In this document: positions 20,422 through 37,030 of the stretch, piece after piece
Layout of the letters: each line of letters starts with the position of its first letter
How positions within the stretch are numbered: position 1 is the stretch's first letter
Origin: an uncultured Acidobacteriota bacterium
GTDB taxonomy: Bacteria; Acidobacteriota; UBA6911
Direction of reading: 5' to 3'
Length of the DNA stretch: 64,000 nt
Assembly (NCBI GenBank): GCA_963809485.1
Contig: CAWEJX010000020.1
Span: forward strand, 64,001 to 128,000
Position numbers and translations under genes: made by a program
Notes under the pieces: model-generated
The model's input: only the letters and a program-made list of their open reading frames with translations
The model's database searches: none
What the model was told of the DNA's origin: nothing

Positions 20422-21261
20422 CTACTTCTTCTGCGATTCCCTGGCAATATCTTCGGGCGTCGCATCTTTGGCGCAGCGGAAGCCGAAATCATATAGGGCT
20501 TCCGGCTGAGCTCCCAGGCGCTCCCATATATGCGCAACCTTCCCTCGGTAGCGCGAAGACAGGCCTCGGACCACACGGTGAGTCTCTCCGGATACGGGAT
20601 TTCTCTTGGGATTTCCCTTATAGGTCTTATACCAGGAAGAGGTCCATTCCTGAACATTCCCGAGCATATCAACGGCACCATAGGGGCTTATATCATCGTA
20701 TTGAGCAATTGCAGTCGGCTTGGATGGTCCAAATTCGTAGGTGTTCGCCCGCTTTTCCCCCCAGTCATTTCCCCAGGGATAGCCTCGTCCATCGGTTCCT
20801 CGGGCTGCTTTTTCCCATTCCTCTTCAGTCGGAAGCCGCTTCCCTTCTGCTTTGCAGTAAGCAGCCGCATCGTTCCAGGTAATATAAACAACCGGGTAAA
20901 GGCCTTTATCCGGGGTAAAGAACAGCCTCCAGTCCTTGCCCTCTTTGGCGCCTTCACCGGTGTAGCCGGTTTTGATGGAAAAGTCCAGGAATTGAGAATT
21001 TGTTACTTCGTATTTATCGATATAGAATGCCGGCAAATCGACCTTAAGCTGCGGATAGGCATCGTTATTTTTGTCATCCGTGCCCATGATGAACTCTCCT
21101 GCCGGCACGAAAACCATCTCTCCGGGAATAACGGCCGGCGTGGCGATTTCGGCAGCGCCTTCGCCCTCAACCTGTTCAGCGGAATCCTTGCGGCCGCAAG
21201 CGCTTAAGGCGCAAACGGCCAGTAACAAAATAATAAAAGCAAAATATGCCTTTCTTGACAT
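20422..21261 (-). CDS. FGE-sulfatase (SUMF1/EgtB/PvdO) domain lipoprotein
   Basis: Lipobox LSAC; FYIDKYEVTN, KRLPTEEEWEKAARG, YPWG, DMLGNVQEW, GFRC. Confidence 0.9.
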   Translation of the reverse strand: MSRKAYFAFIILLLAVCALSACGRKDSAEQVEGEGAAEIATPAVIPGEMVFVPAGEFIMGTDDKNNDAYPQLKVDLPAFYIDKYEVTNSQFLDFSIKTGYTGEGAKEGKDWRLFFTPDKGLYPVVYITWNDAAAYCKAEGKRLPTEEEWEKAARGTDGRGYPWGNDWGEKRANTYEFGPSKPTAIAQYDDISPYGAVDMLGNVQEWTSSWYKTYKGNPKRNPVSGETHRVVRGLSSRYRGKVAHIWERLGAQPEALYDFGFRCAKDATPEDIARESQKK

Positions 21262-21578
21262 GATTTCTCCTTGGGAGTTGTGCATAAATCCCAAAATGCG
21301 TGATGCTTTATACAGTAACTCGGCCATCCAGTCAAATTCAGCCTGGTGACGAAATCACAAAACCTCCGACCATGATTATTATGGTATAGACCTGGCCAAA
21401 ATCAAAGCCCGCTGCTTTGCCCGAATCCCCTGAAGCTCTCAAACCGGCATGGCCATTAACGCCTTAAGTGCCTGCAGATGCTCATTGTTATTGCAATTGC
21501 TGCAATCTAACACTATCATTCGCAACCATAAACGCTATCGTGGCCGTAGTTGCCGAGTCCCCTCGACTGAGGCTCGAG

Positions 21579-23954
21579 ATGGCAGAGATGCATTGGAAGT
21601 TGCGATCGGACCTTGAGATTCGTTCGGAGCCGAACTCAGGGATTATCATTAAGGATCCGATCACCGGCAGTTTCTATAGATTCCCTCCCGTGCAGGCTTC
21701 AGTGCTGGAGCTATTGGATGGGCAGGCCGATGCTGCGTCCATAGCCGCATATGTTTCCGAGAAACATCAGACCGAAGTCCTGGAAGAACAGGTAACGATT
21801 TTTGCCGGAAAGCTGCAAGCGCTTGCTCTGCTTGATCATCCCTCTTGCTGGGCCAAGCTCGAAAATCTGGGTAAGAAAAAGCGCGGAATTGTGCGAAGCA
21901 TACTTTCGATCAAGATACGCGCTTTCAATCCCGACACATTTTTGACCGAGCTCGAAAAAAAGGTTCGTTTCTGCTTTAGCCCGGCTTTTGCGACGATTGC
22001 CTTGGGCACCATGGCTATCGCCATGGTCATTTCTGTTCTGAATTGGGAATCGCTGTTTGTTTCTGTGCGCTCCCTTTTCTCCCTTTATTCCGTTCCGCTT
22101 ATACTGACGGTAGTTTTTGCCGTCATGACTATCCATGAAATATCGCATGGCGTTGCATTGAAACACTTTGGCGGGAAAGTGGAGGAGATGGGATTCATGA
22201 TTCTCTATTTTATCCCGGCCTTCTATTGCAATGTCAGTGACGCATGGATGCTGAAGAAGCGCGAGCGGATCCTGGTCTCATTGGCGGGAAGCTACATCCA
22301 GGTATATCTCTGGGCTCTGGCCACAATAGCATGGAGGCTACTGGCGCCCGAAATCCTGCTAAGCCGGATTTGCCTCATTGTTATAGCCTTCACGGTTATT
22401 CAGACCCTGCTCAACTTTAATCCGCTGATCCGCTTGGATGGCTATTATGTTCTTAGTGATTTTATCGAAGTCCCCAATTTGAGGCCTAAGGCTGTTAAGT
22501 ATATCAAGGATCGGGTTCAGTCAATGCTTACTGGAGCGCCCCATGTAAGCGCTGGCGGACTAAACTCAAGAGAGAAAAGGTTATACTTGTATTACGGGAC
22601 TTCTTCTTTGCTCTTCACTGCGGCTCTGATAGGGATTATGTTTCAGCGTCTCGGAGAGTGGATGGTTCGTGAATATCAGTCATGGGGCGTGCTTTTGATA
22701 TCGGTGCTTTTTTTAATGGTTGTACCGATTGCGAAGAAAGAGAACGCGACGAATTCCGGAAAGATGCTAAAGCTGGTTATAAAGCGCACAGGAAAAACCC
22801 CTTGGGCCCTCATAGTTATTTGCCTCCTGTTAGCAGCCGGGTTCCTGCCCTGGGAGCTGAAAATTTCGGGCGATTTTACGATCATAGCCTCCAAGAGGGT
22901 TTCTGTGACACCACAGGTAATGGGGAATCTGAAGAAGATACATGTCGGGCAAGGCAGCCAGGTTCGTGCGGGGCAGTTGCTGGCAGAGATGGAAAATCTG
23001 GAGATTGCCAATAATTACCAGGAGACCAAAGGGGAACTTGCATCCCAGATGGCTTCACTGGATCTGCTGAAAGCCGGATCCAGGCCCGAGGAAATTGAAA
23101 GAGCGAAGCGGCTTGTGGAGACAAAAAAGGCTGAGCTTTATAACGTATCCCGAATCGCCCAGGAGCGCGCGGTTTTACTTGAGACTATCGCCAAAAAGGA
23201 GGCCGAACTGGCCAATGCCCGGCTAAATCACGAACGGTCGCAAAAGCTTCTTGATACCGGGCTGATAGCACGAAATGATGCGGACAGGGACCGGACAGCT
23301 TATGAGGTTCGGCAGAAGGAGCTTTCGGAAGCCAAGGGGAAGCTTAAGGTTTTGGAGGAGCAGACGGATCGGAGCCGGGACATCAAGAACAAGGAATTGG
23401 CTCAGGCCAATAGCGAACTCAGGATACTCCTGGCGGGATCGCGCAAGGAAAACATACGGGCGGTTGAGTCTCAGGTGAAAAAGCTGGAAGAAAAGCTGTA
23501 TATCCTTGAACGTGAAATTGAGCTTTTAAAAATACGAAGCCCTATTGATGGTGTAGTTTCCACATCCTATCTCCAAAACAGAATCGGCGATTTTTTGGAC
23601 AAAGGAGATGCATTCTGTGAAATTGTCAGTGAAGGAACGGTGGTGGTGGAAATGCCCGTTCCTGAGAAGGAGATTGGAGATGTGAGCCTGGGATTTCCGA
23701 TCACCATCAAAGTTCGCGGATATCCGAAGCGCTGGTACAGGGCTCATGTAACCAGCATCGCGCCGGTGGCTGCAGTCCATGGGCTGGAACGGATTGTGGT
23801 AGTGCAGGGCCAGTTGGAAAATCCGGATGGCAGTCTCAAAGCCGGGATGACGGGAGTGGGCAAGATTCTATGCGGAAAGCGGATGATTTTTGACATCGTA
23901 TCCCGTCGCCTGATCCGGTGGCTTCGGACGGAGTTTTGGGAATACCTGCCTTAA
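21579..23954 (+). CDS. PqqD/RRE - M50 (site-2) peptidase - HlyD-type periplasmic adaptor fusion
   Basis: N-terminal RRE-like segment (IIIKDPITGSFYRF...LLDG...KLQALALL); HEISH (HExxH) and NFNPLIRLDGYY; several TMs; lipoyl half-motifs flanking a long coiled coil; LKAGMTG. Confidence 0.9.
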   Translation: MAEMHWKLRSDLEIRSEPNSGIIIKDPITGSFYRFPPVQASVLELLDGQADAASIAAYVSEKHQTEVLEEQVTIFAGKLQALALLDHPSCWAKLENLGKKKRGIVRSILSIKIRAFNPDTFLTELEKKVRFCFSPAFATIALGTMAIAMVISVLNWESLFVSVRSLFSLYSVPLILTVVFAVMTIHEISHGVALKHFGGKVEEMGFMILYFIPAFYCNVSDAWMLKKRERILVSLAGSYIQVYLWALATIAWRLLAPEILLSRICLIVIAFTVIQTLLNFNPLIRLDGYYVLSDFIEVPNLRPKAVKYIKDRVQSMLTGAPHVSAGGLNSREKRLYLYYGTSSLLFTAALIGIMFQRLGEWMVREYQSWGVLLISVLFLMVVPIAKKENATNSGKMLKLVIKRTGKTPWALIVICLLLAAGFLPWELKISGDFTIIASKRVSVTPQVMGNLKKIHVGQGSQVRAGQLLAEMENLEIANNYQETKGELASQMASLDLLKAGSRPEEIERAKRLVETKKAELYNVSRIAQERAVLLETIAKKEAELANARLNHERSQKLLDTGLIARNDADRDRTAYEVRQKELSEAKGKLKVLEEQTDRSRDIKNKELAQANSELRILLAGSRKENIRAVESQVKKLEEKLYILEREIELLKIRSPIDGVVSTSYLQNRIGDFLDKGDAFCEIVSEGTVVVEMPVPEKEIGDVSLGFPITIKVRGYPKRWYRAHVTSIAPVAAVHGLERIVVVQGQLENPDGSLKAGMTGVGKILCGKRMIFDIVSRRLIRWLRTEFWEYLP

Positions 23955-24057
23955 ACGCACGTATTACATTCGTTATTCAAGCTGCTGTCGGGACAGAACT
24001 CTATTACTGCATATCGGCATACCGCACGCTATAAATTACAGAATTAAACAATTTATA

Positions 24058-24087
24058 TTGACAAGATCATTGGAACCCTGTTATTTT
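24058..24087 (+). promoter_or_regulatory. Possible sigma70 promoter upstream of the micro-peptide region
   Basis: Perfect TTGACA at 24058-24063 in an AT-rich tract, 18-bp spacer, weak -10 TATTTT. Confidence 0.35.
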
Positions 24088-24511
24088 CCACAACATAGCT
24101 AAGAATATGCTTTGGGAAACGCGCATCGGGAACTTGCTTTTTTGAGTTTTTGGTGGCGAATCCGGCTTGGCTATGAAGATCAGCATTCTCGAATAGCTCT
24201 CTCACCTTGATGAGCATCTGGTCTGTTTTCGCATGGGGAAAACGGATTTGGATGCCTCTCCCAATCTGAGCAAGAGCAAAAGCTGATGTTGCGGCAGGGC
24301 TTTGCGGTTGAGGTTTAAGTTCTTGCTTCTGATGCACAAGCCGGAGGCGGATATCTGTGGATATGCCGTGCCGGATCAAGCCATCCCGTAAGCGGGGCTG
24401 CCTCGAAGCAAACCTGGAGCAACCAAGCTTTGTTGTTCCTATTGGGTTTCGAACTGTAAGGGGGCAACCTCGAACAGAAAGATTTCCAACGAGGAAGCTG
24501 TGTCTGTGTAT

Positions 24512-24528
24512 TTGGCTGAATTAGTGCC
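24512..24528 (+). promoter_or_regulatory. Putative sigma54 (-24/-12) promoter
   Basis: TTGGCTGAATTAGTGCC: GG(24514-15)-N10-GC(24526-27); predicted +1 near 24539, immediately before RBS AAAGGAGG at 24541. Confidence 0.5.
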
Positions 24529-24553
24529 GTTCCGCGCAGCAAAGGAGGCCTTT

Positions 24554-24580
24554 ATGGCAAGCGGAATTCTTTGGCTGTAA
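24554..24580 (+). CDS. Micro-peptide MASGILWL (8 aa), candidate leaderless signal peptide
   Basis: AAAGGAGG-CCTTT-ATG GCA AGC GGA ATT CTT TGG CTG TAA; C-terminal GILWL resembles SVLWM of the next ORF; an upstream in-frame GTG at 24500 would give a 26-aa version. Confidence 0.6.
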   Translation: MASGILWL

Positions 24581-24632
24581 TGCTCGGGGACACCCTCAGT
24601 GCCACCGAAGCAAGTTCAAAAGTGGAGGCTGT

Positions 24633-24692
24633 ATGCAGACCGAAATCGAAATTCTCGAAACTCGTGAAAATCCTAGTGTTCTCTGGATGTAG
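24633..24692 (+). CDS. Small precursor peptide MQTEIEILETRENPSVLWM (19 aa)
   Basis: RBS GGAGG at 24624-24628; acidic leader-like IEILETRENP followed by hydrophobic SVLWM; downstream of the RRE-M50-HlyD gene. Confidence 0.75.
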   Translation: MQTEIEILETRENPSVLWM

Positions 24693-24731
24693 GATCTAGC
24701 GTGTTTGTAGGACGAGAAAACTTTCTCGCAT

Positions 24732-24789
24732 TTGATCTGCAGGTCAGATCTGGGAGTTTCTCACTCCTGGATTCTGATCTGCAGATCAA
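24732..24789 (+). repeat. Long inverted repeat (stem-loop) after the peptide genes
   Basis: TTGATCTGCAG-GTCAGATCTGGGAGT / ACTCCTGGATTCTGAT-CTGCAGATCAA; no U-tract follows. Confidence 0.8.
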
Positions 24790-24929
24790 CAATAAGTCAT
24801 TGGCCTGCTAATCCATTGAAATTATTGGTCTTGGTAATTTTCTTTTGACTAATGCCCAACCAATCGATTGCCGATTAGTTCACGGAGGCCTTTTAGATAG
24901 AAATACTGATTTCTCGGCCTGAGATTTTT

Positions 24930-27346
24930 ATGACTTGGCATGATCTGCCCAAGAAGCTTAAATATTTTATCGTTCTCATAAATCTTCTAGCTCTTCCGAT
25001 TTTTGCCCTATCCTCGTGGAATCTCATCCAGCACCCGCCAAGTGACAAAGGCTGGATAATCCTAACTATTTTAACCGTCTTAACTGTACCGGCATTCCTC
25101 GGCTTCCCTCGGTGAACACAATGGCACTCATAGGGGATGCCTATGTAATGTCAATTGCAATGATGTACGGGTGGACACCTTGTATCGTGGCAACTGTATG
25201 CCATAGTTTGGTCGCTTCCATTTTTGGCATACAAAAATCAAAACGATACATTTATCGGATTGCATTCAATGTATCGAGCAGTGTTTGTTGTGCCTGGGCT
25301 TATAGTAGCATCTATCAACTAATGAATCCCGGGCTGAGCAAGCATGCAGCGGACATAGCTTTGCCCACCGTTGCACTGACAATTACATTTTTCGCCCTGA
25401 ATTCTCTTCTAACAGCAGTAGCCATAGGACTGGCATCAGGGCAAAATGTCCTTCGATTTTGGACCGAAAATTACCTTTCTTTGGGGGTCGAATTTTCCAT
25501 ATCTTCTGTTTGTGCTGCGCTAATAGTAACCCTCTACCAGATGGGTCCTTGGGTACCATTCATTGCAGCTCCATTTATAAGCGTAGTCTGGGGATGGAAT
25601 AAATTGAACAAAGCAAAGGCCATGGAAGCCGAAAGGCACTTGAAGGAGCAAGAAGAGCTTTACATGCGGACGGTAGAATCACTGGCACTGGCTGTTGACG
25701 CAAAAGACCAAACCACGTACGGACACATTCGACGGGTCAAGGTTTATGCGACTGGTCTTGCAAAGCTGGTAGGCATCAAAAATCCTGACGAGCTTAAAGC
25801 AATTGAAACTGGTGCATTACTTCATGATATTGGCAAACTGGCCATTGACGATTACATTCTGAATAAGCCCGGGCGCCTTTCGAAACAGGAATTTGAAAAG
25901 ATCAAGATGCATGCAACTGCCGGCGACGAAATTTTGCAGCAGATCCGATTCCCGTTCCCAGCGGCTAAGTACGTGCGTTACCATCATGAACGTTGGGACG
26001 GACAAGGCTACCCGGACGGACTAAAGGGAGAAGAAATACCGCTTGGGGCCAGGATACTATCCATTGCTGATGCTTTCGATGCCATTCGCTTTTCGCGCCC
26101 CTACAAGCTTTCGATTGTGCAGGACGAAGCAGTTGAAATCCTTCGATCTCAGAGCGGGACTGTCTATGATCCTAAGTTGATTCAGCTATTTTTAGAGCAT
26201 ATCGTGGAATTGGAGGAAGCCGCTGCAAAAGAGTCCGAAAGTGTTCCTGAGCTGTCCTTCAGAAAGTACTTCGAAAAAGTCGATCAAGCAATATCTGCTG
26301 CCGATGTTTCGCTCTCTGGCCTTTCTGTTCCACAAGATATCCCGGCCGAACTTGTACAACTGGCTGAATTTTGCAGCACGATGACCGGACATCTCGATCT
26401 AGGAGATATTCTCTCTGTTATTGCGCGAAAGATGGAGCGACTGGTTCCATATACTACTTGCGCATTTTATGTTGATGACGGGGAGGATCACGTACAAGCA
26501 ATTCATGTAAATGGGAGGTTTTCTGAAGTTGTCCAAGGACATAAAATCAGCATGGGCAAGGGAATAAGCGGCTGGGTAGCTGCATATAGACGACCCATGA
26601 TTAACACTGGACCCGCACTTGATTTTCAGGGGATCCAGGGGGACTTTTCCGCATTTAAGGATGCTCTTGTTGTACCAATTTCCCTAGATGACGAATCGCT
26701 GGGAACAATATCGCTCTATGCGCAGGAACCCATCGCATATAGCCCGTATGAATTGAGCATATTGCAGACGTTATCAAGCTTTATTGCGCCGTTAATCTCT
26801 GATGCCAAAAAACATGCAGCCGTTTCATCTGAGCACTTTATCGATCCAACAACACATATTCACCGCGTTTCCTACCTGACTGCAATCGGCCCGCAGCTTA
26901 TCTTCTTTCGCTAGCAAAAACCGGGCTCCTGTTTCGCTGATTTATCTCGGGATTAGGAATTTATCTCAAATCATACGTGTGTATGGAGATGCTGTATCCA
27001 ATTCGGTTGTTAAAAAGGGTTGCGGCATCCATCAAACCCGAGCTACGGGAGACAGACGTTCTTGGTTCGATATGGGCATCAGGCATTTGTAGCCTTTCTG
27101 CCTGGCGTTCGTGACGATCAAGCTAATCATTGCGTGGTCCGCCTTCTTCATCAGATACGGAATCAAGGATTGGCTTTTTCCGGCCAAAATGTGCTGGTCG
27201 ACTGTAAAGCAGGTATATCTTCATTCCCAAAAGATGGAGCCACGATATTCGCTCTAATCCAGTCCGCGCAGGAGAATATTTTGGATGCTGATCCTGGGGC
27301 ATCGGTGGCGGACAATAATGTCGTGGATTTCCTGCCGCGCGCCTAA
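24930..27346 (+). CDS. Membrane sensor - HD-GYP - GAF - degenerate GGDEF protein, interrupted by about 4 single-base frameshifts (sequencing error or pseudogene)
   Basis: Multi-TM N-terminus; LHDIGK, HHERWDGQGYPDGLKGEEIPLGARI, ADAFDA; GAF (GKGISGWVAA); reconstructed C-terminus LRETDVLVRYGHQAF; shifts near 25107, 26902, 27018, 27061. Confidence 0.85.
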
Positions 27347-27372
27347 AACCATATTTTGCAATATTATAGAAA

Positions 27373-30300
27373 TCAGTTCGCGCGAGAACTCCGGAACTGA
27401 CGATATTCCAGATAGCAATTGTTGCGCTTTAAGAACAACATAATCGACGAATATTGCCGAGCCGGGATTCCCAAAATCTCAAAAGCCTCACGATAATTCC
27501 CCTTAGCCTGTTTCAGCGCCTTATGCAATACGGCTCGTACAACTGATGGGCCCAATTGGTGACTCGAAAATGGTTTTTTCACCAAGTCTGCGAAGCTCCC
27601 TCTTTTATCAAGGATGTCGTTAAAAAGCCCCTCGGCAGTTTCAAGTTCCAAATTTGCCTCTCTGGGCATTGCATTGCGAACATCCAAAGGCAAGTGGTTA
27701 ACATCGAGAATTGAGTCGGTTGTTGAGAAGTATGCCCCTTCAACAATCTTTATCAATTCCCTGACGTTTCCTGGATAGGAGTATTTTTTTAGTACATTAA
27801 TCGCACTGGGTGAGAACCTCTTGACCCTACCTCCTTCCATTTCAGCTGTTTTCGACAAAGCCCATGCGAGCAATATAGGGATATCATCTTGGCGTTCCCG
27901 CAATGTCGGCACCTGAATTTCCATAGCCTTCAGTCTGTAGTAAAAATCCTTTCGAAATGTCCCTATCCTCATCTCCTTTATTAGGTCTTTGTTGGTTGCA
28001 GCAAGTACTTGAATGTCGATTTTGCGGGGTGCTGTTTCTCCCAATCGCCTTATTTCGCGCTCTTGCAGCACACGCAAGAGCTTGGCCTGCAGGCGAAGTG
28101 GCAAATTTGCAATTTCATCCAGAAAAATTACTCCCCCGTTTGCCGCTTCCAGTAAACCTTGTCGGTTTTCTGTTGCACCGGTGAAGGCACCCTTCCTATA
28201 GCCAAAAAGCTCGGCTTCCGCTAGGCTATCGGATAAAGATCCACAGTCCACGGGCACAAATCGGCCGGATTTACGCCTACCAGTTCTATAAATGGCCCGA
28301 GCCACCAATTCCTTCCCGGTACCGCTCTCGCCTGTTATCAATATATCTAGAGGTGAGTCTGCAGCGCGACCTATTCGCCTGCGCAATTCCTTCACCGCTA
28401 TGCTTTCTCCAATAATCTCCGCATATCCCTCTCGCGCTTGATGCAGATATTGTTCAAGCTCTGTTTTTTCCCTAATGAGCTGCTGATGCGCCAAGGCATT
28501 ATCAATCGCAATGGCTGCAAGATTACAGAAGGCGGCAAATAGACTAATGGTAGACTCACTTAGGCTTCTCGCAGGCGAAGAATGATCGGCATAGAGCACA
28601 CCCAGCACTCGTCCAGATACCTTCAATGGTGCGCATAAAATTGTCCCCAATTGAAAGGCAACAATGTGCTCCTTGTTTGCTACACGAGGGTCTCCTTGCG
28701 CATCGGCACTCACGAAGGGACTTCCTTTACGGCTTACTTCTTCTAATATATCCTGGCTAATAGCATGGGCCCCATCTAATGACTCTCGTTTGATATTCCT
28801 TCCCTTAAATAACTCGAGATTACCAGTAGATTCATTTTTTATAAACACCAAAGCCCTTTCAATCCCAACTGCTTCAATTAGCAAATCCACGATTGATTCA
28901 AGAAGGGGATCCAATTCCCTTATCGAATTGATAACTCTGCTAACTCGTAACAACGTTCGGATCTGCTGTTCCTGGATATCGTCAACAGCAGAGCTGCTAA
29001 AAATCCTTCGCTTGTTTTGCAGACTCTCATTGCGCTTCTCACACTCCGACATGGTATGACGTCGAGCAAAGGCTGCCCAGAATGATTCAAGCTTCGCTTT
29101 TGGCACTTTCTCCGCAATTATTTGAAGGCACTCTATCGTTTTTGAGCTGTGGTATAAGCAAGATTCCCAATTTGATAATATTTCTTCAATGCGTGACATT
29201 TCTGCATGGGAACGCCATTGAAGCTCGAAGTCTCCACAATCGCGCGAGAGTCTGATAGCGATTTCAACCTCATTTTTTGCATCTGTTATGGAATTATCTG
29301 AGTTCAACTTGAGCTTTCGAAAATTAAGCCCTCCCAATATTAAATGCGCTTTAGCCATAAGAAGATTACTATTCATCGCCCTTGCCAACCTCATTGCATT
29401 TCTAATAACCCTTGAGGCACCCTGTAAATCGCCACTTGCTGTAAGGCATTCGCCCAAATACAGTTTTATCAGGCATGATTGATACGGCCAGTGCTTTATT
29501 GTTACGGCCTTATTCAAGTTAGAAAGCAACCTAATTGCATCGGCTTCCCTTGCTCGCTGAAATAGAATGCATGCGCGGATGGCTTCGCCAAGTTCCCTTT
29601 CGTATACGGGTGCTTCAGAAGTTTCAAGTTTAGCCAATTGAGTAACATAGGCTAGGGAAAGATCAAAATCTCCGAGTTCGAAATTGAGCCACGCCGATAG
29701 ATAGGAGGCTTGCGCTTTTGAAAAAATGGCTACGAAAGGGCTTATTTCGAAATCTAGTTTGCATAATATATCGTTGGCACCTTGATAATCTCCGGTGGTG
29801 ATTTTGATGTCAGCCAGAGTGGCTTGACATGAGTGTTGGAGTATCGGGTTTCCGCTTTCAATAGAGAATCTAACCGCGCGTTCAGAGGCCGCCTTTGCCT
29901 CTGCCAGTTGTCCATCTCGGCATAGGCATTCAGCGTAATTGCTTAGAGCTTGGGATCTTAGGGGAATAGATCGACATTCTTCGCTGATTTTAACAGCGCG
30001 TTCATGATGCTCCAATGCCTTCGCAAATCTACCTCTTGCAAGCAAGCAGGCCCCATAATGTGAATGTGCCACTCCCAGTGCGCCAAAATCTTCATATTGC
30101 GCAAGGATATCAACAGATTTTTTTGCCGCACTAACAGCAGAATCTAAGTCGCATGCAACACGCTGAAGAGCGGAAACCAACGCATAAATTTGGCCTACTG
30201 CGACGCTCGCCTTTTCCCTGGACATTGCCCTAAGAGCTCGATTTAAAAGCAATAATCCTTGACGTGGATGTGATTTTATAAGCTGACAGTAAGCTAGGTG

Positions 30301-32757
30301 TCTGAGCAGTGAAGCCCTAATTGTCGAGTCCTTAGTTCCATACTGCCCCTTTAAAACCAGCAATGCCTTATTTGCAAATAACTCCACTTTTGCAGCATTC
30401 CCATCGTGACGATAGGAGACGGCCAATTGGAGTAGAAGGTTGGATTGCGTTGTGCTAGAAATCCGCCCAATTCTACTCAGGCTTCGCGTTATAAGCCTGG
30501 TTGCCTTCCTAGCCGATCCAAGGGCACAATAGCTCTCTGCAGCATTAATCGTAATTTCAGACAATACATCAGGAGGGTAGTTATTTCTCGTAGCCAAGAC
30601 ATACTCATAAAACAAAAGCGCACTATCATATGAATGATCGTTTTTGCATTCTGCAGCAGCATTGAGGGCATATTCAGTTGCCTTTTCGCGATGTTCACCC
30701 TGCATATAATGTACGGCCAATTCTTGGAGGTGGCCTTCTGGACCATACTCCTGTTCAAGCACCTCGGCGATTTTGCGATGCATCCTCCGTCGCATCGGCT
30801 TTGGCAGACTGCCACGGATCACTTCCGCAATCAGTGCATGGCGAAATTCCACGGTTTCATCTGATTCCTTAGCCTCCACACGCACCATCTGGCGATGGCT
30901 CAGTTCCTGCAACGCCTCGTTCGTTTCAGCCGAGCTTTTGGACATGACTGAAATCAGCGTTCCTTTGGAAACAGCCCGCTCCATTAAAGCCAGCCAGCGA
31001 GACAGCTCCTGGGCAAGTGAGGACAACTGGTGCAGACGACGCTGAAGAACCGCACTCAAGCTGGCCGGGACATCGAGGTTTTTCAAATCCTCATTGATAA
31101 ATATCCACGCACCCGACTCACAGCGGAGCAATTCCTGCTCAACCAGGTGCTTCATCATTTCTTCCAGAAAAAACGGATTGCCCCCAATATTTCTATACAT
31201 CCAGGATCCCAAGGTCACCCTTAGATTCCGATCTCCCGTCATTGCGGCAACCAAGTCCTGAACGTGATCCTGAGATAACGGTTCCAGCGTTACGACTTCC
31301 CCGCGCTGTTGCCGCACAACAAGCTCCATGAGCTTACCCAGCATTGCCTTGGGCTCCTCCCCGGTACGCAGGCTGACACACAGAAGAACCGCATGAGCCT
31401 GTATATCCGAACTCAGGTAATCCAGAACTGTGCAGGTGGCTTCGTCCGCCATGTTAAAGTCATCCAATAACAGCAGGGTTGGATGCTCTTTAAGACGCCG
31501 GACCAGTTCCCGGGTCAGCAAGTCCCGGAATTGCCCGGCCGCAAACTCAGAGGAAGACTCAAACGCGCCCGAATCCGGCACCCGGGGTGAATTCCCAAAA
31601 TCAAATAGCGCTTCTCCCTCCGCCGGCTCGGTTCGGGCCAATATCTGGCGGAAGGGTGCGTACGATCCATCCTCGCGCGTCCCACAAGTCCCCTCAATAA
31701 CCCTCCATCCTTCCAGAAGTGCCCAGCTTCTTAGTTCCTCCATGCACCTTGTCTTCCCGGATCCGGCTTCTCCTGTCAGGAATACTGTCCACCCCCGGCG
31801 GTTTCCCCGCACTCTATCAGCGCAATCCTGCAGGATCGTCATTTCTTTTTCCCGGCCGACAAACCGGGTGATGGAAAAATGACTTTCCAGTTCTTTCACG
31901 TCCATCGCCAAACAGTCTTTGCCGATGGCCTCGCCCAGCGGCCGCAACACTTCTTCCCTGGAATGAGGCCGTTTTGAAGGATCTTTGTCCAAAAGTCTGC
32001 TAAGCAGATGGGATAGCGCCGCACCCCCGCTCAGACGCTCAATCGGGCGCAAATCGAAACTACCCTGCAGGTGTTTCTGGATCAGGAAACCGGGATCCTC
32101 ATCTCCAAAAGGAAGGCGTCGGGTCAGCAACTGATAGATCAAAACCCCCAAAGAATACAGATCCGATTCGGCGTTCGCTTTTCCGCCCAGCAGGATCTCC
32201 GGCGCCGTATATAGCGGGATCGCATTAATATTCCCCTGCGGGGTCTTCCGGATCCATTGTCCGAGGCCGAAACCCATGAGTTTCAACCGCTCATCTTCGT
32301 GCTCATGTTCCCGCAAAATGGTATTGGAGGATTTAAGATTCCCGTGCACGATTTCCTGCGAATGCAGGTAAAGAATTGCTTTGGACAGAGACACGATCAG
32401 CTTTAGCTGTTCCTCGATATCCATCCCTTCCGAGGCGGAATAGATATCCTTCCCGGCAACAAACTCCTCTGCCAGAAATACTCTCCCCGTATCTTTGAGA
32501 ATCCCGAAATCCAAAAGCCGAACAAAGCTTGGATGACTGAACCTGCGCAAAAAGGAGAATTCCGCGCTCAGAACACTGAGCGGTCCCGAATCCGTGTCGA
32601 TTCCATGCAAAATCTTTATCGCGACCCGAGCTTTCCCTCCGCCAAGATCCCGGCATCTGTAAACTTCCCCGGTATTGCCCGCTCCCAAAAATTCTTCCAC
32701 CTGATAGCGTTCCGCGATCACCTGCGCATCCCTGAGCCGTTTGTGCGCCGTCTTCAT
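27373..32757 (-). CDS. Ser/Thr (pseudo)kinase - P-loop NTPase - TPR - GAF - sigma54 enhancer-binding protein, 1794 aa
   Basis: Kinase fold (LGAGNTGEVY, VAIK, YTAPE, DLYSLG); FVGRE, GEAGSGKT, GGNPFFLEE; helical TPR-like region; GAF (PLKVSGRVLGVLYAD); GESGTGKE, GAFTGA, FLDEI, PGNVREL. Confidence 0.93.
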   Translation of the reverse strand: MKTAHKRLRDAQVIAERYQVEEFLGAGNTGEVYRCRDLGGGKARVAIKILHGIDTDSGPLSVLSAEFSFLRRFSHPSFVRLLDFGILKDTGRVFLAEEFVAGKDIYSASEGMDIEEQLKLIVSLSKAILYLHSQEIVHGNLKSSNTILREHEHEDERLKLMGFGLGQWIRKTPQGNINAIPLYTAPEILLGGKANAESDLYSLGVLIYQLLTRRLPFGDEDPGFLIQKHLQGSFDLRPIERLSGGAALSHLLSRLLDKDPSKRPHSREEVLRPLGEAIGKDCLAMDVKELESHFSITRFVGREKEMTILQDCADRVRGNRRGWTVFLTGEAGSGKTRCMEELRSWALLEGWRVIEGTCGTREDGSYAPFRQILARTEPAEGEALFDFGNSPRVPDSGAFESSSEFAAGQFRDLLTRELVRRLKEHPTLLLLDDFNMADEATCTVLDYLSSDIQAHAVLLCVSLRTGEEPKAMLGKLMELVVRQQRGEVVTLEPLSQDHVQDLVAAMTGDRNLRVTLGSWMYRNIGGNPFFLEEMMKHLVEQELLRCESGAWIFINEDLKNLDVPASLSAVLQRRLHQLSSLAQELSRWLALMERAVSKGTLISVMSKSSAETNEALQELSHRQMVRVEAKESDETVEFRHALIAEVIRGSLPKPMRRRMHRKIAEVLEQEYGPEGHLQELAVHYMQGEHREKATEYALNAAAECKNDHSYDSALLFYEYVLATRNNYPPDVLSEITINAAESYCALGSARKATRLITRSLSRIGRISSTTQSNLLLQLAVSYRHDGNAAKVELFANKALLVLKGQYGTKDSTIRASLLRHLAYCQLIKSHPRQGLLLLNRALRAMSREKASVAVGQIYALVSALQRVACDLDSAVSAAKKSVDILAQYEDFGALGVAHSHYGACLLARGRFAKALEHHERAVKISEECRSIPLRSQALSNYAECLCRDGQLAEAKAASERAVRFSIESGNPILQHSCQATLADIKITTGDYQGANDILCKLDFEISPFVAIFSKAQASYLSAWLNFELGDFDLSLAYVTQLAKLETSEAPVYERELGEAIRACILFQRAREADAIRLLSNLNKAVTIKHWPYQSCLIKLYLGECLTASGDLQGASRVIRNAMRLARAMNSNLLMAKAHLILGGLNFRKLKLNSDNSITDAKNEVEIAIRLSRDCGDFELQWRSHAEMSRIEEILSNWESCLYHSSKTIECLQIIAEKVPKAKLESFWAAFARRHTMSECEKRNESLQNKRRIFSSSAVDDIQEQQIRTLLRVSRVINSIRELDPLLESIVDLLIEAVGIERALVFIKNESTGNLELFKGRNIKRESLDGAHAISQDILEEVSRKGSPFVSADAQGDPRVANKEHIVAFQLGTILCAPLKVSGRVLGVLYADHSSPARSLSESTISLFAAFCNLAAIAIDNALAHQQLIREKTELEQYLHQAREGYAEIIGESIAVKELRRRIGRAADSPLDILITGESGTGKELVARAIYRTGRRKSGRFVPVDCGSLSDSLAEAELFGYRKGAFTGATENRQGLLEAANGGVIFLDEIANLPLRLQAKLLRVLQEREIRRLGETAPRKIDIQVLAATNKDLIKEMRIGTFRKDFYYRLKAMEIQVPTLRERQDDIPILLAWALSKTAEMEGGRVKRFSPSAINVLKKYSYPGNVRELIKIVEGAYFSTTDSILDVNHLPLDVRNAMPREANLELETAEGLFNDILDKRGSFADLVKKPFSSHQLGPSVVRAVLHKALKQAKGNYREAFEILGIPARQYSSIMLFLKRNNCYLEYRQFRSSRAN

Positions 32758-33143
32758 ACCCGCTCCACTGAGAAAGCCTCGCTGTTCGATGCCGGATTTC
32801 TCAATAAATGCTTCTGCCCCGAAAAATCATTCTGCAGCCCTGATGTCCCAAGCCCACTGGTTGTAGCGGCTGTGAAAAAGCGGATTTGGCAACTGCCCCG
32901 CCCACCCCATTGTCCCCGGTCCCGCATCCCTGAAGGACCTTCCTCTGCTGCGGCGCGCCCTGAAATGCCGGCAGGGTTGCGACGCCTCACGCCGAAGGTT
33001 CCCGAGGAACAGCGGCAGCCTTTTAGAAAGCTTGAATCCTATTGTAAACCATATAGCCTGCGACATTTAAAGTCATTCGGATTCATCCCGCCGCAATGCT
33101 CGAATTTCTTGACAGCACGGCAGAATTCGATAAAACTGCCCGC

Positions 33144-34898
33144 ATGCTCTTCCTACTGCGAAAATATTTGCTTTCTTGCCTTTTTCTAGCGGCGATTTTA
33201 CCGAATACACCTTTTGCGCAGGAGGCGGGAAAAACCGATTTCCTCCAGCTTAAAAATCTAAACGGTGTCCGGGGAGGAAACCTTGTTGCCGCCGTCTCCA
33301 CCGACCCTTCAAATTTCAACCGGATGCTAACATCGGGCCTGGCAAACACTGCCATCACGGAGCGGTTGTCCGCGGACCTTGTGCACATCAACAGAGGCAA
33401 CATGCAACTGGAGCCCTCCCTGGCTGCGCGGTGGGAAGCAGATAAAACGGGCGGAATTTATACGCTTCACTTGCGCCGTGGCGTCCGTTTTTCCGACGGC
33501 AGCCCGTTTACCGCAGATGACGTCGTTTTCACTTTTCAAGTGCTGACCGATCCCGGCACCCAGAGCTCCATGTCCGGCCAGCTTGAAACCGACGGCACGT
33601 TCCCCGCTGTAGCCAAAATCGACGAGTATACCGTTCGCGTCGCGTTCCAGCGTCCGGTGGGAATGGGGCTTCGAATGCTCGACTCGGTGCCCATACTGCC
33701 GAAGAATCGATTATATAAAGCCTATAAAGAGGGCAATTTCGGCTCAGTGTGGGGGCCGTCAGTCGCGCCAAGAGACGTTGTGGGCCTTGGGCCCTTTCGT
33801 CTGAAGGAATATCAGCGAGGAGTGAGTGTCACTCTTGAAAGGAATCCATTCTACTGGAAAAAGGATCGCTCCGGGCAGGCCTTGCCTTACCTGGATGCGA
33901 TTACGTTTTTGATCATTCCCGATCTCAATTCCGAGGCGCTTCGTTTTCAGCAAGGCGAGCTGGATCTTGTAAGCTCCCTGAATCCCGAAAACTACGCGAT
34001 GCTTCGGCGGACACGGCGCGCCTACACATTGCGAGATCTGGGTCCCGGCCTGGCCATGGATTTTGTCTGGTTTAACCTCAACCGGGGCAAGAACAGCCAG
34101 GGCAAATCCTATGTGGATCCCGACAAGCTGGCGCTATTTGAAAAGGCTGAATTCCGCCGGGCAGTTTCCTACGCGCTGGACCGAAAGGGGATGGCGCGCT
34201 CGATTCTGCTGGGACTGGGCTCCCCTCAATATGGGCCCGTCAGCTCTGGGAACACCGTCTGGTATCACGGTGGAATTCTCCAGACCGCTAATGATCCAGC
34301 CCGTGCCCGGGAATTGCTGGCCAGGATCGGCCTGAAGGATTCCGACCGCGACGGGATTGTCGAATATGGCAGCCGAAGGCGTCCCCTGGAGATCAGCATA
34401 TTCACTTCCCGGGGAAACAGCGTGCGCGAGAAAACCGCACAGGTCATTCAGGACAACCTGTCCAAAATAGGGATCCGCACGGGGATCCAGCATTTGCTGC
34501 CCAACGAAATCGCCTCCCGTTTTCTTAGCTCCTTTGAGTATGAAGCCATCCTGTTCGGATTCACGCCAACAGACGTCGCTCCGGACCTGCAAACCGACCT
34601 CTGGTTCAGCAGCGGCAAGATTCATTTCTGGTGTCCGAATCAGAAAAAACCCGCGCGCGCGTGGGAAGCGGCGATTGACGACCTGATTTCCAAGCTTGTG
34701 CGAAGCATCGATCCCGCCGCCAGGAAAGCCGGCTTCAACAGGGTTCAGGAGATTTGGGCAGAAGAGATGCCGGCCATTCCGACAATCGCACCCAATATTC
34801 TTGTGGGATGGAGCGAGAAGTTGGGCAATATGCACCCCTCCATTCTGGCGCCCCACCTCATCTGGAATGCTGAGGAGATCACAAAGAGGAAACCCTGA
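33144..34898 (+). CDS. Peptide/nickel ABC transporter substrate-binding protein (family 5, OppA/DppA-like)
   Basis: Signal peptide; LRRGVRFSDGSPFTADDVVFT, GLGPF, LERNPFYW, FRRAVSYALDR. Confidence 0.92.
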   Translation: MLFLLRKYLLSCLFLAAILPNTPFAQEAGKTDFLQLKNLNGVRGGNLVAAVSTDPSNFNRMLTSGLANTAITERLSADLVHINRGNMQLEPSLAARWEADKTGGIYTLHLRRGVRFSDGSPFTADDVVFTFQVLTDPGTQSSMSGQLETDGTFPAVAKIDEYTVRVAFQRPVGMGLRMLDSVPILPKNRLYKAYKEGNFGSVWGPSVAPRDVVGLGPFRLKEYQRGVSVTLERNPFYWKKDRSGQALPYLDAITFLIIPDLNSEALRFQQGELDLVSSLNPENYAMLRRTRRAYTLRDLGPGLAMDFVWFNLNRGKNSQGKSYVDPDKLALFEKAEFRRAVSYALDRKGMARSILLGLGSPQYGPVSSGNTVWYHGGILQTANDPARARELLARIGLKDSDRDGIVEYGSRRRPLEISIFTSRGNSVREKTAQVIQDNLSKIGIRTGIQHLLPNEIASRFLSSFEYEAILFGFTPTDVAPDLQTDLWFSSGKIHFWCPNQKKPARAWEAAIDDLISKLVRSIDPAARKAGFNRVQEIWAEEMPAIPTIAPNILVGWSEKLGNMHPSILAPHLIWNAEEITKRKP

Positions 34899-35003
34899 CC
34901 CGGGAGCCCGACTGAGCATCGCGGAAAGCTCGTCACAAGGACCTGATCGTCGGTTTCGCGGCCCGATCCCCGATCAGAGACGGCAGCAACCCGATTGTTT
35001 AAT

Positions 35004-35993
35004 ATGCGAACGATTGTGTTTATCCTCAAACATGCTTTGCGCCTGATTCTACTTGCTCTCGTTGTCGCCTTTGTGACATTCTGGCTCTCCTCAATAATTC
35101 CTGGCGACTTTTTCAGCACCCATCTTATGGAATCCGGGATGCGGGCTGAAACAGTGGAGCAGCTCCGCGATAAGTATGGCCTGAACCAGCCTGCATATAT
35201 TCAATACTCGCGCTGGCTGTTCGACCTGCTTCGACTGGACCTCGGGTATTCGCTCTTTTATCAGCGGCCGGTTACATCCATTGTGGCCGATGCACTTGGG
35301 AAGACCTTGTGGATTGGGATTCCCGCATTAGTATTCGGATTTTGCGGAGGAACCATTCTGGGGGCGCTTCATAAAGTAGCCGAACGCCGCCTGTTGGGAC
35401 GCTGCCTGGATTTTCTTTCCACCGTGGCACTATCCCTGCCGTCTCTTCTGCTGGGATTAATGGCCCTGCTTTTTGCGGTGCATACAAACTGGTTCCCGCT
35501 GGGAGGCATGAGTTCGCTCGACAGCCAAAATGCCGGATTTCTGCAATGGCTGGCCGACCGAATCCATCACCTTGTCCTGCCTGTGGCATGCCTCACTCTT
35601 CCTATTCTGGCATCGGTGGAACGCATCCAATATGCCGCCACTCGCGGTCATGCGAAAGATCCGTATCTGCGGTTCGCCCAGTCCCGTGGATTGGGGCGTC
35701 TTCGCTTTTTTGCTCACTACGTACTTCGCCCCGGGCTCAATCCGGTTCTATCGATCTCAGGACCCATGATCGGAGGCGTCCTCAGCGGCAGCCTCGTTCT
35801 GGAAGTGATTTTCGCCTGGCCCGGCCTGGGCCAGATCACCTATGATGCCCTATTCAACAACGACCTCTTTCTTTTGGCCGGATGCATCGTGGGCAGCAGT
35901 GTGCTTCTGATCGTGGGAAATCTGCTGGCCGATCTTGCTCTGGTTTGGTTGGATCCCCGGACACGATCGCTTGTCCGGAAAGGCCTCAGATGA
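35004..35993 (+). CDS. Peptide ABC transporter permease (OppB/DppB-like)
   Basis: PGD, YGLNQP, DLGYS, HLVLP, EVIFAWPGLG, DPR. Confidence 0.92.
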   Translation: MRTIVFILKHALRLILLALVVAFVTFWLSSIIPGDFFSTHLMESGMRAETVEQLRDKYGLNQPAYIQYSRWLFDLLRLDLGYSLFYQRPVTSIVADALGKTLWIGIPALVFGFCGGTILGALHKVAERRLLGRCLDFLSTVALSLPSLLLGLMALLFAVHTNWFPLGGMSSLDSQNAGFLQWLADRIHHLVLPVACLTLPILASVERIQYAATRGHAKDPYLRFAQSRGLGRLRFFAHYVLRPGLNPVLSISGPMIGGVLSGSLVLEVIFAWPGLGQITYDALFNNDLFLLAGCIVGSSVLLIVGNLLADLALVWLDPRTRSLVRKGLR

Positions 35994-37030
35994 AAAAAAA
36001 CAGGAGAATTCCCATTGCAGCAACCTTTGCCGGACTGCTGGTACTTGCCGCATTGTTTGCCGACTTTCTGTCGCCGAATCCTCCTGACATGCAGAACCTC
36101 GATCAATTCTTCCATCCTCCGTCGCGTGTCCATATCTTCGACCGCAGAGGCGGGGTGAAACTCAGGCCCTTTATATATAAAACCGAGTTGACAGATCCCC
36201 TCAACGTCACCTATCGGGAAAACACGGAAGCCACGTTTGCCCTGGAATTTTTTTTCAGGGGCTACCCCTACAGGCTTCTGGGGCTGATTCCGTTGGACCG
36301 TCATCTTGTGGGCAGAAGCGGGCAGCCGCACTATTACCCTTTGGGCACGGACGAACTGGGCCGTGACGTTACGGCTCGCGTTCTCGCGGGCACACGCACT
36401 TCCCTGCTGGTCGTTGTGCTGGGCATGGCCATTTACGCAGCTCTGGGTTTGACCATCGGCGCATCCGCCGGTTTGTTCGGAGGCTGGATGGATGCTCTGC
36501 TGATGCGCTTTTCGGAGTTTGTCTTAGCTCTTCCTGCACTCTATCTGGCTTTGGCTCTCAGAGCACTAATGCCCCTGCGCATACCGTTCTGGCAGACTCT
36601 GCTTTTGACGGTCGGAACAATCGCGTCGGTTGCATGGCCGCCGATGGCCCGGGGGATCCGGGGACTTATATTGCAGCTGAAAAACTCGATGCATATCGAG
36701 GCCGCGAGGTCGCTGGGAAGCACGCCCATGCAAATTTTCCGCCGGCACATGCTTCCGGCACTGCTGCCTTACGCTTTGACCCAAACGGCAGTGGCCGCCC
36801 CTGTGTTTTTGTTGGGTGAGGCGGTGCTATCCTTCCTGAATGTAGGATTCCGAGACTCGGGAGAATCGTGGGGCAGCATGCTGCGCAGCCTAAAAGACAT
36901 CAGAGTCATCACGGACTTCTGGTGGAATCTGCTGCCTTTGTTTATGGTCTTTCTTACGCTGCTATGCCTGAATGTATTCAGCATCAGACTGGGGCGCAGG
37001 GAACCGGACAGTCAGATCATGCGTATATAG
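35990..37030 (+). CDS. Peptide ABC transporter permease (OppC/DppC-like)
   Basis: LGTDELGRD, EAARSLG, RHMLP, LSFL, SWGSML; ATGA overlap with the previous gene. Confidence 0.92.
   Translation: MKKNRRIPIAATFAGLLVLAALFADFLSPNPPDMQNLDQFFHPPSRVHIFDRRGGVKLRPFIYKTELTDPLNVTYRENTEATFALEFFFRGYPYRLLGLIPLDRHLVGRSGQPHYYPLGTDELGRDVTARVLAGTRTSLLVVVLGMAIYAALGLTIGASAGLFGGWMDALLMRFSEFVLALPALYLALALRALMPLRIPFWQTLLLTVGTIASVAWPPMARGIRGLILQLKNSMHIEAARSLGSTPMQIFRRHMLPALLPYALTQTAVAAPVFLLGEAVLSFLNVGFRDSGESWGSMLRSLKDIRVITDFWWNLLPLFMVFLTLLCLNVFSIRLGRREPDSQIMRI

Follow-up and report, generated by a model that had tools for sequence, protein, structure and literature searches.

Introduction

Ribosomal peptide signals are textbook knowledge for Firmicutes. 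In their RRNPP, Rgg-SHP and ComRS systems, a short precursor is cut by the M50 protease Eep, which frees a short hydrophobic and often Trp-containing C-terminal peptide, and this peptide is received by a repeat-domain protein. To our knowledge, such signals are barely documented in double-membraned (diderm) bacteria, and we know of almost nothing on the social behaviour of Acidobacteriota, which are abundant soil organisms. In this study, we analysed a 64,000-nt stretch of DNA (the window; contig CAWEJX010000020.1, positions 64,001 to 128,000, forward strand, assembly GCA_963809485.1) from an uncultured Acidobacteriota bacterium. It carries a gene for a protein in which a RiPP (ribosomally made, post-translationally modified peptide) recognition element (RRE), an M50 protease and a HlyD adaptor are fused, together with very short peptide genes and the genes of two regulators. 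We read this locus as a leader-dependent peptide production module that is genetically coupled to the two regulators, with a probability of about 0.6.

The nearest characterised relatives of the production part are the daptides. According to the preprint describing them, an intramembrane site-2 protease (S2P) carries an RRE as an N-terminal fusion, and this peptidase, MpaP, removes the leader; daptide clusters contain a mean of 2.3 short open reading frames (ORFs) whose N-terminal ELExMEAP motif is conserved (bioRxiv 10.1101/2023.03.08.531785). Class II microcins such as colicin V are exported by a peptidase-containing ABC transporter (PCAT), HlyD and TolC (PMC10352776). A literature search found no description of an RRE-M50-HlyD fusion, of the peptides reported here or of this gene set in Acidobacteriota.

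Results

Layout of the locus and its homologues

The gene order over 21.5-37 kb of the window was read from the ORF listing together with family scans. The features that make up the proposed module were as follows:

21579-23954, + strand: 791-aa fusion of an RRE (PqqD-like, about residues 1-100), an M50/S2P intramembrane metalloprotease and a HlyD membrane-fusion adaptor (Pfam, NCBIfam, AlphaFold2 (AF2), Foldseek)
24058-24087, + strand: sigma70-type promoter, TTGACA-18-TATTTT with an extended -10 TG (20-locus alignment)
24166-24310, + strand: predicted structured RNA motif in the 5' leader (alignment, RNAalifold, covariance model)
24554-24580, + strand: 8-aa micro-ORF MASGILWL behind AAGGAGG (conserved small ORF with a coding signature)
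24633-24692, + strand: 19-aa precursor with leader MQTEIEILETRENP and predicted core SVLWM, full ORF MQTEIEILETRENPSVLWM (conserved small ORF)
24725-24793, + strand: long near-perfect hairpin, terminator- or stabiliser-like, following the precursor gene
24930-27346, + strand: gene with membrane (MASE9-like), HD-GYP, GAF and degenerate GGDEF (RYGHQAF) regions and at least 4 frameshifts (Pfam HD_5, GAF)
27373-32757, - strand: 1794-aa regulator with a degenerate Ser/Thr kinase, AAA_16 STAND NTPase, MalT-like TPR, GAF, sigma54 AAA+ and a C-terminal DNA-binding region (Pfam, NCBIfam)

A stretch of about 1.0 kb without annotated genes separates the gene of the 791-aa protein from the HD-GYP/GAF gene. 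The first-pass annotation of this DNA had named an RRE-M50 peptidase-HlyD fusion, two tiny peptide ORFs led by ribosome-binding sites, a membrane HD-GYP gene, a giant TPR-containing sigma54 activator and an Opp/Dpp-type binding protein with two permeases, and had noted that a RiPP-modifying enzyme was missing. The fusion was borne out by one ORF holding all three parts. Both tiny ORFs were confirmed and are conserved far above chance, the activator and the Opp-type genes were present as described, and no tailoring enzyme was found within 21579-37030. The HD-GYP gene has the expected domains, but its reading frame is broken in this assembly.

The assembly of the organism comprises 6.04 Mb in 21 contigs, and the fusion protease gene is single copy in it. 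We retrieved 75 loci around homologues of the fusion protease (referred to by L numbers), which together with the window gave 76 sources, and small ORFs (sORFs) were sought in all six frames. The window's clade was taken as the 41 loci whose protease is at least 45% identical; 24 of these have at least 800 nt downstream. Homologues of the fusion protein were found at 59-95% identity, and the few with a named source are labelled Acidobacteriota or Acidobacteria. Among 401 sampled genomes of the phylum, 19 gave a match at E<=1e-60, including 7 of the 7 from the window's family, its own genome counted.

Comparison with described systems

The locus resembles daptide clusters, as described in the preprint, in its RRE-S2P fusion, in having several short precursor ORFs per cluster, and in an acidic leader motif that ends in Pro (ELExMEAP in daptides; EILExRExP or EELExKxAP here). 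It differs from them in that MpaB/C/D/M-type tailoring genes are missing, as is an invariant Thr at the C-terminus, and the hosts are diderm Acidobacteriota. Further differences are the cores of 5-9 residues with an invariant Trp, the fusion of the protease to HlyD and the coupling to an HD-GYP protein and a sigma54 activator. A Pfam scan of the ORFs between 18.8 and 46 kb gave no MpaB-type DUF-RRE, alcohol dehydrogenase, aminotransferase or methyltransferase tailoring gene. The sole methyltransferase near the locus matched Pfam models for a PUA domain and for general SAM methyltransferases, including rRNA/tRNA methyltransferase. Because the NCBIfam daptide score lies below its cut-off (see below), the C-terminal Thr is not invariant and the four tailoring enzymes are missing, we do not regard the locus as a daptide system.

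With the RRNPP systems the locus shares a short ribosomal precursor, an M50-family protease, a short hydrophobic Trp peptide and a repeat-domain protein as candidate receptor. Unlike in those systems, recognition of the precursor would depend on an RRE, the protease is fused to HlyD, and the link to Opp is not conserved. The candidate receptor is a STAND/TPR/sigma54 protein with a dead kinase domain and without homology to RRNPP receptors. As with YydH/LiaK, a membrane HExxH protease would mature a small secreted peptide, whereas a radical-SAM epimerase and an ABC transporter are missing here. The kinase-AAA_16-TPR arrangement beside ribosomal-peptide genes recalls the TOMM (thiazole/oxazole-modified microcin) kinase/cyclase fusion (TIGR03903) and the MalT/PknK-type STAND regulators; here, however, the output is a sigma54 AAA+ domain and not a cyclase or a LuxR helix-turn-helix, and the catalytic residues of the kinase are lost. 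Export of the colicin V type likewise ties leader removal to a membrane-fusion protein for crossing two membranes, but the locus has an M50 protease with an RRE in place of a C39 peptidase on an ABC transporter, and it contains no ATPase.

The fusion protein combines a predicted leader-binding domain, a protease and an export adaptor

The N-terminal domain was compared with known RREs by profile and by structure. At E<=1, 17 of the 25 N-terminal domains matched Pfam PqqD, the best with 3.9e-5, and the domain of the window scored 19.2 bits (E 0.0015), under the cut-off of 23.4. A profile search of the PDB with this domain returned the lasso-peptide RRE TbiB1 at E=0.05. The AF2 model (pLDDT 81.7) has the three-strand/three-helix (beta3-alpha3) order of the winged helix-turn-helix RRE type. 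When this model was searched with Foldseek, ranks 1-10 were occupied by RiPP leader-binding proteins only (TbiB1, TfuB1, PqqD, PbtF RRE, ThcOx and MibB). These RRE matches had target TM-scores up to 0.78 and probabilities of 0.99-1.00, with a best E of 3e-3, so that none reached E<=1e-3.

In the protease part, HExxH lies at residues 186-190 and NxxPxxxLDG at 279-288. Residues H186, E187, H190, N279, P282, D287 and G288 were invariant across 22 homologous sequences. The window's protein scored 15.8 bits with the Pfam M50 model PF02163, under the gathering score of 27.2; some homologues of the fusion protein carry PF02163 as a precomputed match. Residues 63-421 aligned to the NCBIfam daptide_HExxH model (NF041824) with 210.5 bits, under the 300-bit cut-off, and residues 161-335 to the YydH/LiaK model NF058609 with 59.6 bits against a cut-off of 225. 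The C-terminal half was assigned to HlyD above the cut-offs of all three models (HlyD_D23, 66.4 bits against 30; HlyD_3, 51.5 against 22.2; TIGR01730, 101.6 against 94.9). An OEP/TolC-like outer-membrane efflux gene adjoins one homologue (L055).

Since domain matches, AF2 fold and Foldseek neighbours agree, the assignment as an RRE-M50-HlyD fusion stands. The first-pass annotation had proposed that the RRE reads the leader and that the M50 site releases the peptide. A characterised homologue of this pair is the daptide RRE-S2P protease MpaP, which removes the leader. We read the RRE as leader-binding and the M50 part as leader-removing because the leader motif is of the same kind as that of daptides and the protease is related. 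When the RRE domain of L049 was co-folded with its own 33-aa precursor, the score was 0.04, which we counted neither for nor against binding.

Two kinds of short peptide genes are conserved downstream of the protease

The sORFs had been expected to take the form IEILExRExP-xxxW, and the precursor was found in this form. Its pattern is M-Q-T-E-I-E-I-L-E-x-R-E-x-P followed by a variable tail, and 37 copies were present in 25 of the 76 sources, with 1-4 in tandem per locus. The precursor was present in 22 of the 24 clade loci that extend at least 800 nt downstream, the micro-ORF in 21, and at least one of the two in 23, which leaves L034 as the exception. All 24 distinct precursor cores contain Trp, and in 22 it stands fourth after the conserved Pro. 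The cores are 5 residues long in 12 cases, 6 in 1, 7 in 6, 8 in 2 and 9 in 3. Four of the cores end in T (AIIWT, VIVWT, LIIWT and FVPVILWT), and the core of the window ends in M. The nearest relative, whose intergenic DNA is 93% identical, has 4 synonymous and 0 amino-acid changes in the 14 leader codons, while its core differs at 3 of 5 residues (CILWG, compared with SVLWM).

The micro-ORF reads M-A-S-(A/G)-I-L-W-L or M-x-x-x-(G/S/K/N)-A-I-L-W-L and has a strong Shine-Dalgarno sequence in front. The 37 copies that end in [AG]ILW[LF]-stop are encoded by 31 distinct 18-nt DNA versions, which vary only at synonymous sites, between Ala and Gly, between Leu and Phe, and in the choice of stop codon. 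This substitution pattern is therefore a coding signature. Some versions read M-S-N-P-(G/S)-A-I-L-W-L; because they keep the N-P found at the end of the long leader, the micro-ORF resembles a precursor copy without the leader.

In the whole 6.04-Mb genome, each of the two sORF search patterns matched at this locus alone. When 8 precursor-type sORFs were compared with NCBIfam, no family was found, the single match having E=7.9. Judged by their conservation, both tiny ORFs are genuine conserved genes. The reading MNSAIFWL-stop at window position 62391 (+ strand) also fits the form of the micro-ORF; it has no Shine-Dalgarno sequence and no conserved context, and we took it as a chance match.

A sigma70-type promoter and a structured leader RNA precede the peptide genes

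The sequence at 24058-24087 was the sole promoter-like site within 23900-25150. Its TTGACA...TG.TA block is retained across the 20 aligned loci, and related loci have it 81-170 nt upstream of the RNA motif. In the window, the RNA motif lies about 100 nt past the promoter. Its core at 24186-24277 consists of UUCUCGAAUAGCUCUCUCACCUUGA, a variable covarying hairpin and CUCCCAAUCUGAGCAAGAGC, so arranged that two nearly invariant helices close the variable hairpin. All 6 modelled pairs of this hairpin (helix 3) covary. In the alignment, 93% of cells were paired, compared with at most 45% when the partners were slid, a figure that leans towards structure because the alignment was fitted to the model. 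The covariance model gave one match per locus in 27 of the 76 sources and one in the whole genome, and in the matched loci its place is always in the interval from the protease gene to the micro-ORF. No copy was found in the second clade described below. An Rfam scan of 23900-25150 at E<=10 returned spurious miRNA and snoRNA matches only, none of them overlapping the motif. The leader RNA is thus a new motif absent from Rfam and could be either a riboswitch-like element or a small RNA. A minus-strand ORF at 24053-24379 would give the conserved leader blocks a coding reading, but the indels that separate them do not come in multiples of three, and this reading was rejected.

In most related loci, the last precursor is trailed by a strong hairpin that is unrelated in sequence to that of the window. 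The peptide genes therefore appear to form their own short transcription unit.

A sigma54-like promoter near 24512 and, through it, sigma54 autoinduction had been proposed in the first-pass annotation. The site agrees with the consensus at 7 of 12 positions and is common to the closest relatives only. GG-N10-GC sites with at least 9 of 12 positions were not conserved either downstream (39 sources) or upstream (30 sources) of the protease gene, and on this ground we rejected a sigma54 promoter for the peptide genes. A scan of the whole window for near-consensus sigma54 sites gave 18, compared with 33.7 expected from shuffles. Autoinduction through sigma54 thus lost its promoter, and a sigma70-type promoter with a structured leader RNA stands in its place.

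Two regulators adjoin the peptide genes

In the giant activator, the Sigma54_activat domain scored 223.4 bits, with GAFTGA at residue 1523, and rpoN is present on contig C8 of the genome. Residues 409-997 aligned to TIGR03903 with 164 bits, under the 705-bit cut-off, and TPR_MalT was matched as well. In the N-terminal kinase domain (31858-32757, - strand), HRD is changed to HGN and DFG to GFG. Across 9 fused proteins, the position of the HRD Asp is occupied by N, N, N, C, R, A, D, S and A. Stand-alone kinases beside distant homologues retain these residues (HRD and DFG in L059; HGD and DFS in L057). Judged by these residues, the N-terminus is a pseudokinase grafted on a STAND-TPR-GAF-sigma54 chain.

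The HD_5 domain of the second regulator scored 119.8 bits, and the translation contains HDIGK and HHERWDGQGYP. Orthologues are single ORFs of about 800 aa (802 aa in L027). In the window, the N-terminal 61 aa lie in another frame, the frame passes through 2, 0, 1 and 2 between about 26905 and 27060, and the ORF at 27020-27346 is the displaced C-terminal domain. The damage is local because four neighbouring genes align without a break to the nearest relative. Either the gene is a pseudogene or the assembly is faulty at this spot.

Within the window's clade, the HD-GYP gene was adjacent in 19 of 20 loci with at least 2.5 kb downstream, and the activator gene in 16 of 19 with at least 4.5 kb. The methyltransferase and FGE-like genes upstream of the protease are unrelated and equally syntenic in this clade; therefore, only a comparison across clades discriminates.

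The gene set recurs in a second clade

A second clade has proteases about 37% identical to that of the window, from sources labelled Solibacteraceae, Sulfopaludibacter, Terriglobia or plain Acidobacteria/Acidobacteriota. Its loci L033, L035, L036 and L049 carry the protease, sORFs, an HD-GYP-GAF-GGDEF gene and a giant activator. In L036 the giant protein has 1699 aa in the order Pkinase-AAA_16-TPR-sigma54. The flanking genes differ from those of the window's clade (QueA, ClpB), and the activator gene lies on the other strand. The micro-ORFs of this clade encode 8 aa of the form M-x-F-(G/A)-V-I-W-(I/V), and ORFs of about 33 aa contain E-I-E-E-L-E-x-K-x-A-P-S. The HD-GYP gene, the TPR-sigma54 activator and the sORFs were thus kept beside the protease in two clades, as expected of the circuit first proposed, and the Opp genes were not.

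In some of the ORFs of about 33 aa, among them those of L035 (3835-3933) and L049 (14551-14649), a (Y/F)(G/A)(V/I)IW block stands N-terminal of the recognition motif, and the order of the modules is therefore not fixed. Pkinase-TPR genes also lie directly beside the protease homologues of L057 (12634-15683), an Ignavibacteriales contig, and L059 (6769-9534), a Blastocatellia contig, which are 24-27% identical to the protein of the window. A 25-aa sORF bearing the leader motif was found in L057 as well.

Adjacency of the Opp-type genes is patchy

Beyond the activator, the window carries an Opp-type gene set:

33096-37030, + strand: Opp/Dpp-type substrate-binding protein (SBP, 33096-34898) and two permeases (34995-35993 and 35882-37030) (Pfam SBP_bac_5 and two BPD_transp_1, NCBIfam)

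Ten loci of the window's clade could be judged for the presence of these genes. The SBP gene adjoins the activator in the window, L004, L006, L030 and L032, L007 has the permeases only, and no Opp match was found in at least 1.1 kb beyond the activator in L012, L013, L018 and L023. In the second clade, a gene of the major facilitator superfamily (MFS) occupies the Opp position. No cognate ATPase gene was found in the 9 kb downstream of the permeases of the window, the part of the genome covered by this search. Since adjacency is patchy, the second clade has an MFS gene and no ATPase follows, we do not count the Opp genes as part of the module, and the re-import through Opp that the first-pass annotation had envisaged fell away.

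Discussion

In this study, we found that a fused RRE-M50-HlyD protease in Acidobacteriota is accompanied by conserved short peptide genes and, in two clades, by the same two regulators. In the proposed mechanism, a sigma70-type promoter would drive a short transcript consisting of the structured leader RNA, the 8-aa micro-ORF, the 19-aa precursor and the terminal hairpin. The cytoplasmic RRE of the fusion protein would bind the E-I-L-E-x-R-E-x-P leader, as its homology to the daptide MpaP suggests. The M50 site would then remove this leader and free a short hydrophobic Trp peptide, probably close to SVLWM, and the HlyD half would couple release to an export route that spans the envelope. The product of the micro-ORF, (A/G)ILWL, is leaderless and core-like and could be either a second product or a translational sensor. 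Response or control is most likely the task of the HD-GYP/GAF/GGDEF-like protein and the pseudokinase-STAND-TPR-GAF-sigma54 activator, which would link the peptide to cyclic di-GMP (c-di-GMP) turnover and a sigma54 regulon.

Comparative evidence and homology to a characterised system give good support to the production half, which comprises the precursor, its predicted S2P cleavage guided by the RRE, and release coupled to HlyD. Recurrent gene neighbourhood indicates that the peptide genes may be linked to the two regulators. Since these regulators are conserved neighbours and the likely response arm, the peptide is most likely a secreted signal with lineage-specific variants. The signalling role, the identity of the sensor, the cleavage site and the functions of the micro-ORF and the leader RNA are what we infer. 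Re-import by Opp and sigma54 autoinduction are not supported and lie outside this model.

The same genes can be read in other ways. The peptides might be antimicrobial or membrane-active, bacteriocin- or daptide-like, with regulators that control only production or self-protection. Multi-copy precursors and fast-changing cores are typical of bacteriocins too, daptides include an antimicrobial, and HlyD-type adaptors serve the export of microcins, as the colicin V article states (PMC10352776). We consider this reading unlikely, however, given cores of just 5-9 residues and conserved partners that are sensory or regulatory proteins, in a locus without tailoring, immunity or ABC-transporter genes.

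A full loop of the RRNPP type would have the pentapeptide exported, re-imported by Opp and bound by the TPR region in the cytoplasm, with sigma54 autoinduction as the outcome. Such a loop is quite improbable, as the conserved promoter before the peptide genes is of the sigma70 type and no conserved sigma54 promoter exists, the Opp SBP is adjacent in only half of the 10 judgeable loci, one having permeases only and four nothing, an MFS gene takes this place in the second clade, and ATPase genes are not adjacent. What can be said for it is that all genes named for it are present, the TPR region is MalT-like and hence of a ligand-sensor type, the activator is conserved as a neighbour, and the genome contains rpoN.

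Several observations weigh against the coupling of the production module to the regulators. The upstream methyltransferase and FGE-like genes are as syntenic as the regulators in the window's clade. Twelve more distant Acidobacteriota homologues lack both regulators; one of them adjoins a sigma54 AAA+ gene. L034 retains the protease gene without the sORFs, the HD-GYP gene and the activator, and L003 and L040 have no adjacent activator. In the window itself, the HD-GYP gene is broken by at least 4 frameshifts, compared with a continuous ORF in 9 homologues, and no sigma54 promoter was found in the locus as a target for the activator. The first three of these points would fit a genuine peptide-protease pair that lies next to the HD-GYP gene and the activator through inherited gene order, without a functional link. 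Against this, the set recurs in the second clade with other flanks and an inverted activator, and kinase-TPR genes lie again beside the homologues of L057 and L059 at 24-27% identity, so that we hold inherited order alone to be very doubtful.

In L034 (59% identity), the methyltransferase, FGE-like and protease genes are kept, and the 6.5 kb downstream contain no RNA motif, sORFs or regulators; the stretch L094 apparently comes from the same contig, as both its length and its match coordinates agree. Almost every locus of the window's clade has the FGE-sulfatase/SUMF1-type gene (20422-21327, - strand, in the window) upstream of the protease and divergent from it; the second clade does not. This gene may be a candidate for a role in peptide modification.

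It is most improbable that the sORFs are cis-acting leader peptides (upstream ORFs) which control the HD-GYP gene together with the structured RNA, the protease-HlyD gene being unrelated: the micro-ORF is very short, amino-acid-invariant and placed inside a long structured 5' leader, but the precursors come in 1-4 tandem copies with variable cores, a strong hairpin stands between the sORFs and the HD-GYP gene, the leader motif is common to sORFs beside distant RRE-M50-HlyD genes without HD-GYP, and the leader resembles the RRE-binding motif of daptides.

We therefore return to the peptide production module coupled to two regulators, from which a wider reading can be put forward tentatively. 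The locus might encode a diderm-native form of peptide quorum sensing, in which unmodified Trp-containing penta- to nonapeptides act as pheromones and the variable cores as pherotypes. The leader would be recognised by the RRE and cut by the S2P site, the peptide would leave by the HlyD adaptor, and it would be read out by the pseudokinase-STAND-TPR-sigma54 activator and the HD-GYP protein; the operon would be gated by RNA, and its chassis would extend across phyla. If this were true, cell density would be tied to c-di-GMP and a sigma54 regulon, and the invariant leaderless AILWL would be either a signal common to the whole clade or a sensor at the level of the ribosome. A new cis-regulatory RNA would gate the peptide operon, and further unannotated classes of peptide in several phyla would use the RRE-S2P-HlyD chassis with its L-E-E-L-E-x-R-x-A-P leader.

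The locus supplies exact peptide sequences, two candidate receptors, a new RNA motif and a protease whose recognition motif is predicted. Because the chassis is widespread, the leader motif also offers a practical way to mine diderms for hidden small peptides. At E<=1e-3, searches with the RRE-M50 part gave 11488 representative clusters, and at E<=1e-30 the number was 1302; among the best 150 clusters, 100 are at least 680 aa long, a length sufficient for a HlyD fusion. Homologues of 27-33% identity adjoin sORFs with L/V-E-E/V-L-E-x-R-x-A-P, and distant sORFs with the leader motif were found in other Acidobacteriota and on contigs labelled Ignavibacteriales, Gemmataceae, Deltaproteobacteria and Myxococcales. 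In L084 (8056-8700) and L081 (about 4953, + strand), the RRE-M50-HlyD gene is preceded by 1-3 tandem sORFs, three of them in L084. These sORFs have the leader L-E-(E/V)-L-E-E-R-I-A-P-S and tails rich in Gly, Asn and Pro, a different peptide class on the same chassis.

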